DNA from: a virus
Reading direction: 5' to 3' (one strand)
Virus genome (UHGV): UHGV-1460059
DNA: 41,456 nt
The notes under the pieces are model-generated. The model had not been told where the DNA came from. It made no database searches and saw nothing but the letters and a program-made list of their open reading frames with translations. This document shows, in pieces, positions 32,847 through 41,456 of the stretch; the first letter of the stretch is position 1; the number at the start of each line of letters is the position of its first letter. Position numbers and translations under genes: made by a program.

Positions 32847-33053
32847 ATGCTGAACCTCGATTGTGTTCCTATCTCAACTTATTGCAAAGAAACTGGCGAA
32901 ACTCCTGAAGCAATAAACAAACGTGTACAGCGCGGTGTTTGGCGTGAAGGTGTTCAGGTTTTAAAGGTTGAAGGCGTTAAGGAGAGGTGGATTGATCTTA
33001 GTGAGGTTGCAAAATGGGCCAGACAAAACTGCTCAAACTACCGCGCGGCGTAA
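32847..33053 (+). CDS. Excisionase-like small DNA-binding protein
   Basis: 68-aa basic protein whose 3' end overlaps the int start by 40 nt. ATG at 32847 has GGAG upstream; the alternative start is 32835. Confidence 0.45.
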   Translation: MLNLDCVPISTYCKETGETPEAINKRVQRGVWREGVQVLKVEGVKERWIDLSEVAKWARQNCSNYRAA

Positions 33054-34186
33054 CAATCAGGAAACACCGCCAGGGAGAAACGATCAATATAACTTTCACC
33101 TACAAAGGAGTTAGATGTCGTGAGCCGCTTTCCAATCTGGAAGTAACACCAAAGAACATTAAATACGCCGAGCGTACACTCGGCGAAATCCATAATAAGA
33201 TCGAAAGGGGAACATTCATTTATGCAGAATATTTTCCCCGTTCTGCTCGTTTGAAAATTTTTGGTAATGCTGCTGCAGGCAAAACGGTAAAGATGTACCT
33301 GGACGAATATCTTGAAATCTGCGAAACAAGAAAACTTTCACCCTCTACGATTGGTGGCTATAAAAAATGCCGTAGTGCGTTAGCCTCACTTCACATTTGC
33401 CCTGCAAGTGAATTAACACCAGCAACCCTGAAAGCGTGGATTCAAAATCAGAAAACGACCTTAAAAACAATTCGCAACCAGTTATCTTTCCTGCGGTCAG
33501 CACTTGATGAAGCCGTGACCGATGGGGTACTTCAAATTAACCCCGTATCGTTAGTAACAGCTTCGCGCTACCAAAGTGATAAGTCAGAAGCAGAAAGCAG
33601 CTACGTAGTTGATCCGCTATCACCAGCAGAAGTTGATGCATTACTAGCAGCAGCCGGAAACAAACAATGGGAAAATCTGTTCCGGTTCGCTATACATACA
33701 GGCCTGCGTAGTTCTGAATTATGTGCCCTTCGATGGCGTGATATCGACTTTGTTGGAAAAACTGCCCATGTCCAGAGCGCAAGTGTTGTCGGTGTTATCA
33801 AAGGGACAAAGACAAAAGCAGGTACTCGGAAAGTTGAACTGACAGAAGAGGCAATGTTGGCGCTGATAAATCAGAAGCCATTTACATTCATGAAGGATAC
33901 TACTGTCTTTGAAGATCCAAAGACCAATAAGCCTTGGGCAAGTGCTGATGCAATCAGGAAAAAAGCATGGGTGCCAACATTGCGAAAAGCAGGTATTCGT
34001 TACAGAAATCCATATCAAACTAGGCATACATTCGCCACCCGCCATATCAGCCGGGGAGCAAACCTGTTTTGGCTTGCAGCTCAAATGGGGCATAAAGGGC
34101 CGGAAATGTTATTTCGTCATTATGGTTCATATTTAAAGGAATATGACGGTAATACGACCAGCAATATCACAAAAAAAGCCACTTAA
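33014..34186 (+). CDS. Tyrosine integrase (lambda-type, with arm-binding N-terminal domain)
   Basis: 390 aa; C-terminal catalytic signature including …HTFATRHISRGANLFWLAAQMGHKGPEMLFRHYGSYL… (R, HxxR, Y). Confidence 0.9.
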   Translation: MGQTKLLKLPRGVTIRKHRQGETINITFTYKGVRCREPLSNLEVTPKNIKYAERTLGEIHNKIERGTFIYAEYFPRSARLKIFGNAAAGKTVKMYLDEYLEICETRKLSPSTIGGYKKCRSALASLHICPASELTPATLKAWIQNQKTTLKTIRNQLSFLRSALDEAVTDGVLQINPVSLVTASRYQSDKSEAESSYVVDPLSPAEVDALLAAAGNKQWENLFRFAIHTGLRSSELCALRWRDIDFVGKTAHVQSASVVGVIKGTKTKAGTRKVELTEEAMLALINQKPFTFMKDTTVFEDPKTNKPWASADAIRKKAWVPTLRKAGIRYRNPYQTRHTFATRHISRGANLFWLAAQMGHKGPEMLFRHYGSYLKEYDGNTTSNITKKAT

Positions 34187-35815: not shown

Positions 35816-35847
35816 GGACACGGGTTCAACTCCCGCCAGCTCCACCA
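35816..35847 (+). other. ssrA (tmRNA) 3'-end-like fragment: attachment-site core / junction between two integrative elements
   Basis: GGACACGGGTTCAACTCCCGCCAGCTCCACCA matches the recalled E. coli tmRNA 3' terminus with one mismatch. Upstream sequence is AT-rich and unlike ssrA, so only the terminal ~32 nt are present. Confidence 0.6.
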
Positions 35848-36012
35848 CTTTTTAGTTGTTTGAAGTTCAATGAAGTCTACTAAGCCCACACAGCACAAGC
35901 TCTGCGGGCTTTTTTACGTCTATTGTCGTCCAGTGAGAATTGCTGAGAACTACGAGTTATGGCACCCTGAATGGGACCCACTAAGAAGGGTCCAAAAACC
36001 GAGGGTCCCAAA

Positions 36013-37242
36013 ATGGCAAAAATCGCTAAGAAGCTCACTGACACTGAAATCAAAAGCACCAAGCCAGCCGATAAAGAAATCAACTTGTTTGACGGTGATG
36101 GTCTGATTCTACGAATCGCTCCTTTGGCGAAAGGAGGCAAGAAAAATTGGTATTTCAGGTATGCAGTACCAGTGAGCAAGAAAAGAACCAAAATGAGCCT
36201 TGGGACATATCCTCACCTTACCCTTGCAAGAGCCAGAGCCTTACGTGATGAATATCTCTCCTTTCTGGCAAATGGTGTTGATCCCCAAATCCATAACAAC
36301 GATAAGGCGAAGGCATTAAAGAGTGCTACTGAGCACACTCTCCAAGCCGTAGCGCGGAAATGGTTAGATGAGAAGGTAAAGACATCAGGTATCTCACAAG
36401 ACCATGCAGCAGACATCTGGCGCAGCTTAGAGAGAAATGTCTTTCCCGGTCTGGGTAATGTCCCTATCAATGAGATCCGACCTAAGCTCTTAAAACAACA
36501 CCTTGATCCTATTGAGCAACGAGGCGTATTGGAAACTCTACGCCGTATCATTTCACGTCTGAATGAAATCTTCCGGTGGGCAGCTACTGAAGAACTTATT
36601 GAGTTCAACCCGGCTGACAACCTTGGTCAAAGATTCAGTAAACCAAAAAAGCAAAATATGCCTGCCCTTCCCCCAAGCGAATTGCCAAGGTTTATGGAAT
36701 CTTTGACGAATGCGTCAATCCGGTTGGAAACACGTATGCTAATTGAATGGCAATTGTTGACATGGGTTCGTCCGGGTGAAGCCGTTCGCGCAAGGTGGTC
36801 TGATATTGATACAACCAACAGCATTTGGAACATTCCTGCTGATTTCATGAAAATGAAAAAGCTTCACAAAGTTCCTTTGAGTAAAGAAGCTTTGCGCATC
36901 CTTGAATTAATGAAATCAATAAGTGGGCATAGAGAATGGGTTTTCCCCAGCATAAAAGCGCCTCTTAATCATATGCATGAACAAACAGCCAACGCAGCTA
37001 TCATCCGAATGGGGTTCGGAGGCGAGCTTGTAGCTCACGGTATGCGTTCTATTGCACGAACAGCGGCAGAGGAGTCTGGTAAATTCAGAGCTGAAGTTCT
37101 TGAGGCAGCGCTTGCCCACTCGAAAAAAGATGAAATTATCGCAGCATACAATCGTGCAGAATATCTGATAGAGCGACAGAGTTTGATGCAATGGTGGAGT
37201 GATTACGTTCAAGCTCAAAGATCAAATGCTCTGGTAGCCTAA
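36013..37242 (+). CDS. P4-type tyrosine integrase (IntA-like)
   Basis: ATG at 36013 with GAGGG upstream. N-terminus MAKIAKKLTDTEIKSTKPADKEINLFDGDGLILRI… is typical of P4-family integrases; lies ~165 bp downstream of the ssrA-like fragment. Confidence 0.85.
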   Translation: MAKIAKKLTDTEIKSTKPADKEINLFDGDGLILRIAPLAKGGKKNWYFRYAVPVSKKRTKMSLGTYPHLTLARARALRDEYLSFLANGVDPQIHNNDKAKALKSATEHTLQAVARKWLDEKVKTSGISQDHAADIWRSLERNVFPGLGNVPINEIRPKLLKQHLDPIEQRGVLETLRRIISRLNEIFRWAATEELIEFNPADNLGQRFSKPKKQNMPALPPSELPRFMESLTNASIRLETRMLIEWQLLTWVRPGEAVRARWSDIDTTNSIWNIPADFMKMKKLHKVPLSKEALRILELMKSISGHREWVFPSIKAPLNHMHEQTANAAIIRMGFGGELVAHGMRSIARTAAEESGKFRAEVLEAALAHSKKDEIIAAYNRAEYLIERQSLMQWWSDYVQAQRSNALVA

Positions 37243-37280
37243 GTATCAGAATAGCTAATATAATCCTGAAGGTAAAGAAA

Positions 37281-37697
37281 ATGGAAACCCTATTCAAAGT
37301 TTTTGAAAAATTTAGTTCCAGACCACTTTTTTTTATTTTTTTCGGACTCTCACTTTGTGAATTTTTTCAGAAACAATCTGTTCTGATGAATCCATCAGCA
37401 GATAACATCGCGAAATTATTCGCAGCCATGATATTAGTTGTTTTTTTTACTTGGGGATTTGAATGGCTAATCTTCAAGTTCAATGTAAACCTTGAACCTC
37501 ATGATCAAGGCGATATTGGACCAACAATTGGAACGGCTACTTTAGCTGTATACTTAGTTTATGCCTTTCACTTTCTCAGTGAAAATCCTGAAGCATTAAA
37601 TTTAAAGTTATTAACTAACTCTGGCTTTATATACAGCACAACTCTATTATTATTCTCATTAGAATGCATGAAGCTTAGAAGACTTAAACAAAAATAA
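37281..37697 (+). CDS. Small membrane protein (138 aa), AT-rich island cargo
   Basis: Hydrophobic segments (PLFFIFFGLSLCEFF; LFAAMILVVFFTWGFEWLIF; TIGTATLAVYLVYAFHFL; FIYSTTLLLFSL). Confidence 0.4.
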   Translation: METLFKVFEKFSSRPLFFIFFGLSLCEFFQKQSVLMNPSADNIAKLFAAMILVVFFTWGFEWLIFKFNVNLEPHDQGDIGPTIGTATLAVYLVYAFHFLSENPEALNLKLLTNSGFIYSTTLLLFSLECMKLRRLKQK

Positions 37698-37728
37698 ACA
37701 ACATCATTGTGATGATAAATATAAAATA

Positions 37729-37755
37729 GGCATGGCGAAAAAAAATCACCACGCC
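37729..37755. terminator. Imperfect hairpin between convergent genes (candidate terminator)
   Basis: ggcatggcga-aaaaaaa-tcaccacgcc (8 of 10 pairs); U-rich on the minus strand after the stem. Confidence 0.35.
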
Positions 37756-37768
37756 TAAAATATAATAA

Positions 37769-39517
37769 TTATGGTAGCATCATTGATACATAATCCACAC
37801 CAATCCTTGAGCTATACTGAGACGCTATAGCCTGATATCTTTCTGCATAACCAGTTCTCAGTTGAGATTTAAGTTTGAGTCGGACAGGAACATTTTGCAC
37901 GTTGCCATCCATATTACTTAAAAACACGGCAGAAATAATATTTTTTTCTTCGCCATCAACTGTTGTTCCATGATTCAACACCACCATATAATCAACAACA
38001 GGAAGCGTTTTATCCCCTTCGAAAATAGAGAGATATTTTCTTTGATTTTTATGCATTACATATATATATTTCGAATGTTCAGCAAATGGCAATGCTTTAC
38101 TCTGACTGGCGTTAAAAAGCTCCAGAACTTTAATGAGCCTGTGCGGACTTAATCTTACATGGTGAGGGTCGTTACCCTGAGTAGGAACCAAATCACATGC
38201 CGCAGATACACATAAATACCATTTGTTCGACTCTGTATCAAAGAAAATAGTGCCAGTAGAAATATGACCATCTTCAAAATTCTTTGAAGACAAATTCATA
38301 TTTAAAGCATGATACATTTCGTGATAAGTATCATTATTTGATGGCAGATCCATTTTTGAAGAGCAATATTGGAGCAATGCAGCAACTCCGCTGTTAGCGT
38401 ATTCATTTGAATAGCTATCAAAAACACTTTTGATAAATTCATCCAGCGTATTATTATTTTTAAGTCTTTGATAAAGCTCTTCTGATAAATTACCAAATAC
38501 AAAGTCAATATTTCTACATCTAATATCAGGCGAGTCTGATTTTAATATCTCATTTAACCACGCAGCTTGACCGTAATGATCGTTAGCAAAATGATTTACA
38601 AAAGATAAAGCCTCAGCTTCGATTGCATTCTGAATTTCAGATTTTATTAACTGATAATAAGATGGTTTCCATTCAATGAGAGAATCATTGAGAGTTTGCC
38701 AAATCCTATCTCCATCGTTTTCATGATCATCTTGAACCTTATGAAATAGGGAGACAAAGATATTACCACATTGAATCCATTTTACTCCGCTTTCATCACC
38801 CCGAATGACATTGCCAGATGTGTTGCTAGAAATAATTGCATTTCTAGACACAGCATATTCTGCAATCATTTTTGCAATGAAGTTTTTATCCTTTTGATCC
38901 TCCAACACAGCATCATCATGTATTAATCTTTTAATTCTTCTACAAGGCTTACTGTCTTTAATATAGGCTATTGTTTCATCTCTTGTGAGAGCTTTATTAC
39001 CATTATCATTTAAGTTCGGTAATACAACGTCTTCCCAATAACTTTGGACATCTTCATTATCGTAGTCAATGATCAAGCTGTTGATATCCAGAGCACCTTT
39101 GAGAGTCGATGATATCTGCATCCAAACCGTTTCTAAATTCTCTCTAGTATATATTACAATCATATTTAAATGATCGGAGTCTTTCAAATCTTGTAATAGT
39201 TTAAGTGTTTTATCAGGTGCATTATTATCAAGATGATAATCTACAATAATAAGATCTGATTTTCTAATCCGATCCACATCGAAATTAACAGAACCATTGT
39301 CAACATCACAAATCATATTTTTAGATTGAAAAAAGCTCTCAAGAGTAGCGGCTCGTTTAGATGAGTCAATTTTGTTGTAGTCTAAATCAACTTCGTTATT
39401 CAACGCCCTGATTGATTCAGAATACGTCAGAAAATCGTCATCAATCATGACAACGGAACGAATTGCATTTTCGCAGAAAGTTTTCTGGACAAGAGAATTA
39501 TAATTTGCCACTGTCAT
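37769..39517 (-). CDS. Receiver (REC)-domain protein with ~450-aa uncharacterised C-terminal domain
   Basis: N-terminal REC-like signature: VVMIDDDF (acidic pocket), LIIVDYHL (phospho-acceptor Asp), NMIVIYT (Thr). Start preferred at ATG 39517, 1 nt after the upstream stop; ATG 39535 is the alternative. Very AT-rich. Confidence 0.5.
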   Translation of the reverse strand: MTVANYNSLVQKTFCENAIRSVVMIDDDFLTYSESIRALNNEVDLDYNKIDSSKRAATLESFFQSKNMICDVDNGSVNFDVDRIRKSDLIIVDYHLDNNAPDKTLKLLQDLKDSDHLNMIVIYTRENLETVWMQISSTLKGALDINSLIIDYDNEDVQSYWEDVVLPNLNDNGNKALTRDETIAYIKDSKPCRRIKRLIHDDAVLEDQKDKNFIAKMIAEYAVSRNAIISSNTSGNVIRGDESGVKWIQCGNIFVSLFHKVQDDHENDGDRIWQTLNDSLIEWKPSYYQLIKSEIQNAIEAEALSFVNHFANDHYGQAAWLNEILKSDSPDIRCRNIDFVFGNLSEELYQRLKNNNTLDEFIKSVFDSYSNEYANSGVAALLQYCSSKMDLPSNNDTYHEMYHALNMNLSSKNFEDGHISTGTIFFDTESNKWYLCVSAACDLVPTQGNDPHHVRLSPHRLIKVLELFNASQSKALPFAEHSKYIYVMHKNQRKYLSIFEGDKTLPVVDYMVVLNHGTTVDGEEKNIISAVFLSNMDGNVQNVPVRLKLKSQLRTGYAERYQAIASQYSSRIGVDYVSMMLP

Positions 39518-39518
39518 A

Positions 39519-41237
39519 TTAGAACTCCACTTCATTGAACTGGATCACAAAATTAGCGCCATCTTTTATTAAATAGTTATCGCCTTCATCAGGTTCTGAA
39601 TACCATATTTTATGATGTGCAACAGCAAGGTTTTCTCGACATAGATACAGACCTACCCCATGTCCATTTGCTCTTTTGCTATAAAATAGTTCAAATAGTC
39701 GCGGGATATCATCGGTATCAATTGCCGGACCAGAATTTGCTATGATAACCAAAGAATTCACAAAACCAATCTTTATGAGCCTATTATTTGACAGACTGAC
39801 CCAATACATTGCATTGTTGATAATATTAGTAAAAACAGGATAGATCCTTGATGGTATATCTGTTATTGCGATTTGCTTAAACTCTTCACTAAATTCAATA
39901 GTTATTCGTTGCCGTTCGAAACGCTCCCCAAAGAACTTCAGGACATAATCCATGATATTTTTTCCAGTTATTCTCTGCCTGGATTGATAACCTGATATTT
40001 TCAAAGGTGATAAGAAACGTATTTGTTGAGTAAGCGATCTGTGAGCATTTAACGCCAATGAAAAACCAGGGTGTTCTTTTACAGAAGTAGGAAGAGAGTT
40101 TAGTCCTCTGGTTACCATAGAATCCATTTCTTCAAGTTCATGAGATATTATCTCAACACTAATACCTAACTGTGCAAGCGCGTTTAAACTTTTAGCTTTT
40201 TCTTCAAAATATGAGCGTTCTTCTTCAGATAATGAGAATGCTGAATCTAAGTTTATACCTTCAAATAATCTATCGAGACCTTTTATTATTGATTGATATT
40301 TGAAAGTTAGGGTATCAACTGACTCAACATATAAACTATCGAGCAAATTAAACACATTTTCAATTTGTGAATCATTATCTATTGAATCAACAACTGATAT
40401 AGTTTTAGCATAATAATCACTTCGATCAACCTTTATTTCATCGGCCCATTTTTTTAAAAGAGAATGTATCTTCTCCTCTATCGTGTTATTAAACTTAGTT
40501 AGTTTAGAATTAATAATACCTTGATTTTTTTCAAGGTGATTTTTCGCTGACAATGAAGGCTCAAGTTTATTTAATTCAGAATCAAGTTTATTAATTGCTA
40601 ACTTCATTTGTAGAATATACGCAGAGAACTCATTAAATTTATCTCTGTAGTCTCTATATTTCTCTTCATACATTCCAAGTTTTGGAGGTTTGATAGGCGT
40701 TTTAATTTCACTGCGCAACGCATCTAAGTTTGTAAGATCACTGTCTATAATTTTAAGATAGTTTAAATCTAACGAACCATCAGTTTTATCAAGCTTAGTT
40801 TTCAGCCTTTTAACAGCCTCCAAGGAAGCATCAAGAACTGGTGTCTGATTCTTCAAAGCTTCTGAAAAACTTTTTTGTGTTGATTTTCGAGCTTGTTGTT
40901 GAGCAGATTTTCTTAACTCTTTTTCACGCTTAACTTGTTCTAAAAGCTCTTTACGGTCATCAGAACGTGAACCAAAAAATCTATCAGCAAGTTCAGTTAA
41001 CAAATTAGATATAATAGTTTTCAGTTCTCTTGCAGCCTGGTTTCTTATGAATCCCTCTCTCCCCGACTTATCTTTCAGCTCTTTATTACTGGATTGAGTA
41101 ATTCCAATATAACCAAAAATCCTTCTATTAGACCAATAATATCGCCCTGCATTCCATGAACGTCTTTCTTCTATCTGGAAGAAATCATTATCTACTCGAC
41201 CATAAGGTAATACTCTCAAGCTATCCCTAAAAATCAT
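39519..41237 (-). CDS. Soluble histidine-kinase-like protein (coiled-coil N-terminal region + HisKA/HATPase-like C-terminus), apparently 5'-truncated
   Basis: H-box-like ISHELEEM, N-box NIINNAMYW, G1 NSGPAID, G2 GHGVGLYLC; no TM segments. The reading frame stays open upstream of the first ATG to 41363 inside the IS end, with no start codon. Confidence 0.5.
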   Translation of the reverse strand: MIFRDSLRVLPYGRVDNDFFQIEERRSWNAGRYYWSNRRIFGYIGITQSSNKELKDKSGREGFIRNQAARELKTIISNLLTELADRFFGSRSDDRKELLEQVKREKELRKSAQQQARKSTQKSFSEALKNQTPVLDASLEAVKRLKTKLDKTDGSLDLNYLKIIDSDLTNLDALRSEIKTPIKPPKLGMYEEKYRDYRDKFNEFSAYILQMKLAINKLDSELNKLEPSLSAKNHLEKNQGIINSKLTKFNNTIEEKIHSLLKKWADEIKVDRSDYYAKTISVVDSIDNDSQIENVFNLLDSLYVESVDTLTFKYQSIIKGLDRLFEGINLDSAFSLSEEERSYFEEKAKSLNALAQLGISVEIISHELEEMDSMVTRGLNSLPTSVKEHPGFSLALNAHRSLTQQIRFLSPLKISGYQSRQRITGKNIMDYVLKFFGERFERQRITIEFSEEFKQIAITDIPSRIYPVFTNIINNAMYWVSLSNNRLIKIGFVNSLVIIANSGPAIDTDDIPRLFELFYSKRANGHGVGLYLCRENLAVAHHKIWYSEPDEGDNYLIKDGANFVIQFNEVEF

Positions 41238-41358
41238 TAGTCCTGCATACTTTTTGGCCTTAAGATCAAAGTGGGAATGTTCACGTTCAGTATGTGATGT
41301 ATTTTGTGAAAGGAATTCAAACGTTCCTATCTGAAGCTCAAATGGGCCGACCCCTGCG

Positions 41359-41456
41359 TGATCCTACCCACGTAATATGGACACAGGCCTAAGCGAGGTT
41401 CTTGTTTTCAAATTGTTCCGGACTGAGGCCGCCACACCAACTGTGCCGCCGCCACC
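41359..41456 (-). mobile_element. IS3-family insertion sequence, terminal ~100 bp (inverted repeat plus 3' end of the transposase gene), continuing beyond the window
   Basis: Terminus TGATCCTACCCACGTAATATGGACACAGGCC. Minus-strand translation of 41454..41387 gives …WRRHSWCGGLSPEQFENKNLA*, the conserved C-terminus of IS3-family OrfB. Matches the IS3 right end as recalled. Confidence 0.7.

Follow-up and report, generated by a model that had tools for sequence, protein, structure and literature searches.

A histidine-kinase-like gene truncated at a probable IS3-bounded deletion joint in an ssrA-integrated island

The stretch of DNA analysed here (hereafter the window) is the 41,456-nucleotide UHGV virus genome UHGV-1460059, whose last part carries, on the minus strand, an open reading frame (ORF) for a histidine-kinase-like protein and, next to its 5' side, the right end of the insertion sequence (IS) IS3. 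The ORF (39519..41237, minus strand; 572 amino acids from its first ATG at 41237 in the ORF listing) is annotated in RefSeq as an "ATP-binding protein" (WP_000577251.1) and represents residues 417-988 of a full protein of 988 residues. It is followed in the operon by a partner gene for a Response_reg_2 protein of 582 residues (37769..39517, minus strand), which starts 1 nt after the kinase-like stop codon. The IS3 end (41359..41456, minus strand) is cut by the window edge. According to the data described below, the joint between the kinase-like gene and IS3 is very probably the trace of an IS3-bounded deletion, and what is left of the gene most likely a non-functional pseudogene subject to further IS-driven erosion.

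In the same minus-strand frame, the sequence upstream of 41237 stays open for 42 sense codons, up to 41363, with no ATG, GTG or TTG (translation, DHAGVGPFELQIGTFEFLSQNTSHTEREHSHFDLKAKKYAGL); the closing stop is an in-frame TAG at 41364-41366 (minus strand), which lies within the right inverted repeat (IRR) of IS3, starting at 41359. Both the open extension and its running into the IS terminal repeat had been reported in a preliminary description of this DNA, and translation bore them out. A fusion between the kinase-like frame and the transposase is impossible, orfB being in a different frame. With the local composition (34% G+C), 42 codons would be free of stops by chance with P ~0.03, and free of both stops and starts with P ~0.003. 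The decisive point is that residues 3-42 of the upstream translation are identical throughout to residues 377-416 of 988-residue homologues (BLASTP), so that the open stretch is not a product of chance. Its first two codons (D and H) consist, wholly or in part, of IS3 bases; the native coding sequence retained before the first ATG thus spans 41238..41358 (minus strand), made up of the final base of codon 376 and the whole of codons 377-416 in a 988-codon gene, with no start codon.

The homologue search retrieved proteins of 988 residues with 99% identity from Salmonella, Klebsiella, and Serratia, together with relatives of 975-998 residues from at least ten genera, including Yersinia, Aeromonas, and Acinetobacter, down to 61% identity. 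When the frame of the window (614 residues with its upstream extension) was compared with these uninterrupted proteins by BLASTP, its residues 2-614 aligned to positions 376-988 of the 988-residue protein; codons 1-375 are therefore missing from the window gene. The missing part is strongly conserved over 23 homologues, GHKL motifs included, and at residues 28-137 it contains a HATPase_c_3 domain (a paraMORC-type GHKL ATPase) that the window protein does not have. At the DNA level, window positions 35816..41359 are 99% identical to an intact Salmonella locus, and the homology stops at the IS3 terminus with an ambiguity of one base. The homology, in other words, extends past the first start codon of the ORF and ends at a foreign junction, as in a 5'-truncated pseudogene. 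These comparisons support a kinase-like gene that was natively longer and was truncated at IS3.

Proteins annotated with 572 residues and sharing 82-84% identity with the remnant also occur in Salmonella, Klebsiella, Yersinia, Pectobacterium, and Morganella. In two Salmonella loci annotated in this way (L010:3993-6983 and L011:2247-5237), the whole ORF of 994-996 codons is open; tblastn with a 994-residue homologue gave one unbroken frame over all 994 residues, with 1.25 kb of it left unannotated upstream. Judging from these open frames, the 572-residue entries outside Escherichia coli are start-site mis-annotations of intact ORFs. The false start in Salmonella probably goes back to the truncated protein of E. 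coli, which is abundant.

The letters from 41359 onward (TGATCCTACCCACGTAATATGG; TGATCCTACCC...) begin with TGATCC and include the IRR, read as TGATCCTACCCACGTAATATGGACACAGGCCTAAGCGAGG, and the last 21 codons of orfB with their TAG at 41389-41391. The opposite end of the element, which lies outside the window and was read in the complete E. coli genome L001, is ...CTCACTTAGCCGCGTGTCCACTATTGCTGGGTAAGATCA, so that the two ends form the imperfect terminal inverted repeats of about 40 bp (5'-TG ... CA-3') typical of IS3. On the minus strand, the transposase ends in ...WRRHSWCGGLSPEQFENKNLA with its stop at 41389-41391; the orfB C-terminus ...GGLSPEQFENKNLA occupies 41389-41454, and the element has the orfA/orfB transposase with a programmed -1 frameshift and an orfB ending near the IRR. 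The last 98 bases of the window match IS3 in 3588 of the 5426 complete E. coli genomes on which all the population counts of this work are based, and RefSeq labels the matched stretch "IS3-like element IS3 family transposase", adding "programmed frameshift" in L001. The 3' end of an IS3-family transposase that the preliminary description had placed beyond 41359 was therefore recovered both from the translation and from the annotation; IS3 has its right (IRR) end at 41359, and its transposase is read in the same direction as the kinase-like gene.

Genome L001 shares the window junction (the stretches compared are 99.8-100% identical) and carries the complete IS3 (L001:8460-9717; 1258 bp). This copy resembles IS3 (IS3 family, 1258 bp) in its TGATCC...GATCA imperfect repeats and in its orfA/orfB arrangement with a programmed frameshift. 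It differs from IS3 in that its orfB contains an internal nonsense codon (…VVIDL*SRAVIGW…), for which RefSeq flags it as a pseudogene; any later excision of this copy would therefore need transposase supplied in trans.

In L001, the far IS3 end adjoins a 5'-truncated ygaQ (an alpha-amylase pseudogene), followed by glaH-lhgO-gabDT, and compared with K-12 the homology begins 1144 bp into the ygaQ pseudogene. The 3-bp target duplication that the preliminary description proposed to look for at the other IS end is absent, the flanks in L001 being ...CCCTGCG | IS3 | AGATAAC..., that is, GCG against AGA. This lack does not count against the identity of the element as IS3; rather, it marks a copy that bounds a rearrangement. 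In contrast to simple IS3 insertions, the copy at the window junction has no 3-bp duplication and lies between two unrelated broken genes. Moreover, neither the missing 5' portion of the kinase-like gene nor the methylase gene that precedes it in intact loci gave a megablast match in any of the 5426 genomes. Taken together, the ygaQ sequence on the far side, the missing duplication, and the absence of the 5' part and of the methylase gene argue that IS3 bounds a deletion running from codon 376 of the kinase-like gene to ygaQ. The insertional truncation by IS3 suggested in the preliminary description thus holds as regards the loss of the 5' end at the IS3 terminus, and fails as regards a simple insertion. 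As for ygaQ itself, it is a pseudogene in K-12 and in many other strains; in some O55:H7 and O157:H7 genomes (H135 and H183) the orthologue is annotated as "alpha-amylase family glycosyl hydrolase", with no pseudogene name.

The following scenario can be depicted. The ancestral locus would have been an island integrated at ssrA and carrying a three-gene operon for a C5 methyltransferase, a histidine-kinase-like protein of 988 residues, and a Response_reg_2 protein. An event associated with IS3 would then have taken away codons 1-375 together with the methylase gene, all that remained of the island, chromosomal backbone, and ~1.1 kb at the beginning of ygaQ. The deletion may have arisen beside an IS3 already inserted, or two IS3 copies in the same orientation may have recombined; in either case a single IS3 would have been left between two broken genes. 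Since the TAG in the IS3 repeat closes the frame, translation could start only at the internal Met417 (41237); the region upstream of the operon would be lost, and presumably its promoter with it.

The 5' end of the remnant is present in 561 genomes, about 10% of those examined. The identical remnant|IS3 junction was found in 484 of them, and in a further 70 the remnant is fused to ygaQ with no IS3 in between. These IS3-less joints were read in six genomes (L002:4141-4230, L003, L004, L005, L013, and L014) at the site equivalent to window position 41358, and fall into four types, namely CCCTGCG-TGATC-TCTAAGG, CCCTGCG-CG-CATCTCT, CCCTGCG-GGAAAACC, and CCCTG-AATGGG; each of them lacks IS3 and 6-24 nt of ygaQ, with 0-3 nt of microhomology or filler. 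The differences among the joints, the additional loss of ygaQ, and the IS3 bases kept in one of them indicate that they are derived, independent imprecise excisions and not ancestral empty sites. Where a serotype is stated, the IS3-less genomes belong to O111:H8 and O103:H2, both of which are among the serotypes of E. coli producing Shiga toxin (STEC) listed as carrying the IS-excision enhancer (IEE) (PMC9943667). The varied small flanking deletions and the 0-3 nt of microhomology resemble the IEE-type imprecise excision of IS3-family elements in STEC described there, which suggests that IS3 may have been lost in this way.

Erosion has proceeded further in other genomes. In L004 (O103:H2 strain CEC12044; L004:1-2359), a different IS3-family element interrupts the Response_reg_2 gene behind codon 453; a cluster of 1605 database sequences has the matching 453-residue product (P0128) at its head, which makes this second truncation a widespread one. 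In L015 (strain TCM_B_2; L015:2250-3040), only 10 nt (GACCCCTGCG) separate an IS1 from the IS3 end; this IS1 has removed the remnant save for these 10 nt, and the deletion of the island remnant reaches back to the prophage gene yfdR. Furthermore, L002 (strain AUSMDU00014361; L002:2382-4079) has a 21-nt in-frame deletion in the remnant ORF, which shortens the product to 565 residues. The E. coli alleles differ by 1-3 substitutions per gene, with a diversity of ~0.1-0.2%.

Regarding expression, a scan of the terminal 98 nt of IS3 and of the 121 nt that separate it from the ATG detected no sigma-70-like site facing the remnant, the match counts being those expected by chance. The preliminary description left two outcomes side by side, a pseudogene or expression from the internal ATG; the lost upstream region, the lack of a promoter-like site, and the secondary decay favour the former: the eroding ssrA island most likely retains the gene as a pseudogene without a promoter. 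Compared with the Salmonella copy, the remnant has a ratio of nonsynonymous to synonymous polymorphism (pN/pS) of 0.27-0.40 and the partner one of 0.06-0.13; these values rest on 9-12 differences per gene and have no power.

Several observations weigh against the explanation preferred here. No intermediate was found among the genomes: a chimeric query for IS3, in its present orientation, placed at this site within an unbroken ygaQ gave 0 genomes. No terminator-like site was found between IS3 orfB and the remnant, so that read-through transcription is possible. Most genomes have the 572-residue ORF and that of the partner unbroken, RefSeq annotates the two as genes, and an AGGA lies 3 nt before the ATG at 41237. 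Finally, the remnant retains a complete kinase core (H-box plus HATPase_c), matching the "group 2" architecture, which lacks HATPase_c_3, of a published survey (PMC8011034).

Most of these points would also fit a remnant that is still in use, transcribed by read-through from the co-oriented IS3 or from cryptic AT-rich promoters and translated from Met417, the sensor-less kinase core and the Response_reg_2 protein then working together as an orphan module. IS3 is able to activate neighbouring genes. The formation of new operons by IS3 together with the IEE has also been reported, as cited in a passage of PMC9943667. This alternative nevertheless appears unlikely: there is no outward-facing promoter-like site in the stretches searched, the Shine-Dalgarno spacing is only 3 nt, and both Met417 and the breakpoint fall inside a predicted beta-rich domain (in a low-confidence model) and not at a domain boundary. 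Moreover, the locus has been repeatedly eroded by further IS events, the low diversity means that recency alone predicts intact ORFs, and truncated genes or wrongly called starts may account for some of the "group 2" entries. In a stronger form of the idea, which is to be considered quite improbable, IS3 read-through would supply the transcript for residues 417-988 and the Response_reg_2 protein, and ~10% of E. coli genomes would keep the two as an orphan module rewired for signalling or defence and no longer tied to the methylase or the paraMORC ATPase.

It is also very unlikely that an older deletion joined the remnant to ygaQ and that IS3 inserted at the joint later. The 70 genomes in which the remnant lies directly against ygaQ could be taken as descendants of such a joint, but both homology breakpoints coincide with the IS3 termini within one base, and IS3 is not surrounded by a 3-bp duplication. 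Furthermore, each of the four IS3-less joint types lacks further nucleotides of ygaQ, and one joint keeps bases of the IS3 terminus (TG/TGATC) that are foreign to both flanks; joints that differ in this way could not come from a single ancestral IS-free joint, and independent imprecise excisions fit them.

Simple insertion, with the 5' part of the gene lying just past the window on the other side of IS3 and flanked by a 3-bp duplication, would be normal behaviour for IS3 and might be entertained from the window alone, which ends inside the element with the far side beyond it. The truncated ygaQ followed by glaH-lhgO-gabDT in L001, the non-matching GCG and AGA flanks, and the lack of any match for the 5' part and the methylase gene leave it highly improbable here, and it is refuted for the 484 genomes that share the junction. 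Lastly, there is next to no chance that Met 41237 is the native start of a complete 572-residue gene with IS3 upstream and a coincidental open frame, as the numerous 572-residue database entries, including the 82-84% identical ones of other genera, might suggest: the identity of upstream residues 3-42 with the homologues, the homologues of 975-998 residues across at least ten genera, and the single frame open over 994 residues in the very Salmonella loci annotated with the short protein, where a native start at this methionine (the possibility raised in the preliminary description) was checked, all speak against it.

The intact loci allow the rest of the window to be placed. Their gene order is a dcm-type C5 methylase, the 988-residue gene, the Response_reg_2 gene, a gene for a protein of 138 residues, a P4-type integrase, and ssrA; the methylase overlaps the start of the 988-residue gene by 20 nt, and a 1-nt gap precedes the Response_reg_2 gene. 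The window retains the integrase-proximal 5.5 kb of this island, that is, the P4-type tyrosine integrase (35971..37242, plus strand; annotated start 36013), the 138-residue gene (37281..37697, plus strand), which is conserved and has no family match, the Response_reg_2 gene, and the truncated kinase-like gene. A copy of the 3' end of ssrA (tmRNA) at 35816..35847 (plus strand) represents the attachment-site end of the island, and the 99% homology with the Salmonella island reaches no further left than this copy. The window itself contains no gene for a tRNA or tmRNA.

A prophage of the contractile-tail type occupies positions 1-35400, its genes including those for the tail sheath, the large terminase, and an integrase (33014-34186). 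Since the ssrA 3'-end copy comes next, prophage and island remnant give the impression of being arranged in tandem at ssrA. A search of genome contigs with the partner protein gave one locus (L016:1879-3642), on a 5.6-kb contig labelled as a Bacteroidales metagenome-assembled genome, where the Response_reg_2 protein encoded beside an ssrA-end repeat shares 99% identity with that of E. coli; this is probably a mis-binned enterobacterial contig.

As regards its domains, the remnant protein keeps a portion of the beta-rich middle domain, along with a long coiled coil, HEF_HK (DHp-like, with an H-box SHELEE), and HATPase_c. HEF_HK (PF19191) scored 26.2 bits (cut-off 24.1) at residues 398-456 of the 614-residue frame, the motif SHELEE showing the core histidine followed by an acidic residue; HATPase_c (PF02518) scored 44.9 bits (cut-off 26.4), and the sequence matches in the PDB are the CA domains of sensor kinases. 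The AlphaFold model of the 988-residue protein (mean predicted local distance difference test score, pLDDT, 63; predicted template modelling score, pTM, 0.33) served for rough domain limits only; in it, the breakpoint and Met417 would fall inside the beta-rich middle domain, followed by the coiled coil, DHp-like helices, and the kinase domain. The partner, whose model is good (pLDDT 85.8), is predicted to consist of an N-terminal receiver fold and a C-terminal region of ~400 residues of no assigned fold, with structural relatives for the receiver domain only.

Bellieny-Rabelo et al. 2021 (PMC8011034) have described, by computational means, a pair of two-component-like proteins with links to C5 methylases and paraMORC ATPases. 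Its predominant architecture is HATPase_c_3 + HEF_HK + HATPase_c ("group 1"), the "group 2" architecture, devoid of HATPase_c_3, accounting for 34 of the 222 family members; as discussed by those authors, phosphotransfer from kinase to receiver has not been demonstrated for any member of the family. The pair in the window resembles theirs in combining HEF_HK and a C-terminal HATPase_c with an adjoining Response_reg_2 gene, both proteins being soluble, and the 99%-identical intact loci show the predominant architecture with the upstream C5 methylase. The window copy differs from the family in that it has neither HATPase_c_3 nor the C5 cytosine DNA methyltransferase gene, which is present in the intact loci L006-L011; the domain is absent because it was lost with the deletion, so that "group 2" is only mimicked.

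The full-length protein can also be compared with the GHKL-ATPase restriction enzymes belonging to the BbrUII/HgiDII family, whose GHKL module its residues 13-138 resemble (E 1.5e-13) and with which it shares the coupling to a dcm-type methylase. It differs from them in scoring 50 bits against a family cut-off of 550, and the rest of it is a coiled coil and a histidine-kinase core, with no nuclease. The PADLOC models gave no defence-system match for the full-length kinase-like protein or for the 138-residue protein, and for the partner one match at chance level only. A literature search on the RefSeq protein accessions found no paper.

The event described here is of an ordinary kind and involves no new biological mechanism. 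Its consequences concern, first of all, the way in which the family is represented: the commonest database form of this paraMORC/histidine-kinase-like family is the truncated E. coli remnant, annotated as an ordinary "ATP-binding protein", and its false start has probably been carried over to genomes in which the ORF of 994-996 codons is intact. This can distort surveys of domain architecture, such as the definition of "group 2" (PMC8011034), and the published architecture counts for the HEF_HK family may include start or truncation artefacts. Moreover, successive natural stages of island decay driven by IS elements can be followed cleanly at this locus: a deletion bounded by IS3, then IS3 excisions that were imprecise and independent of one another, and lastly cuts by further ISs. 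In phylogroup-B1-like and STEC strains, this series could be used to mark lineages. The main uses of the finding would be, accordingly, those of an annotation warning and of a lineage marker.
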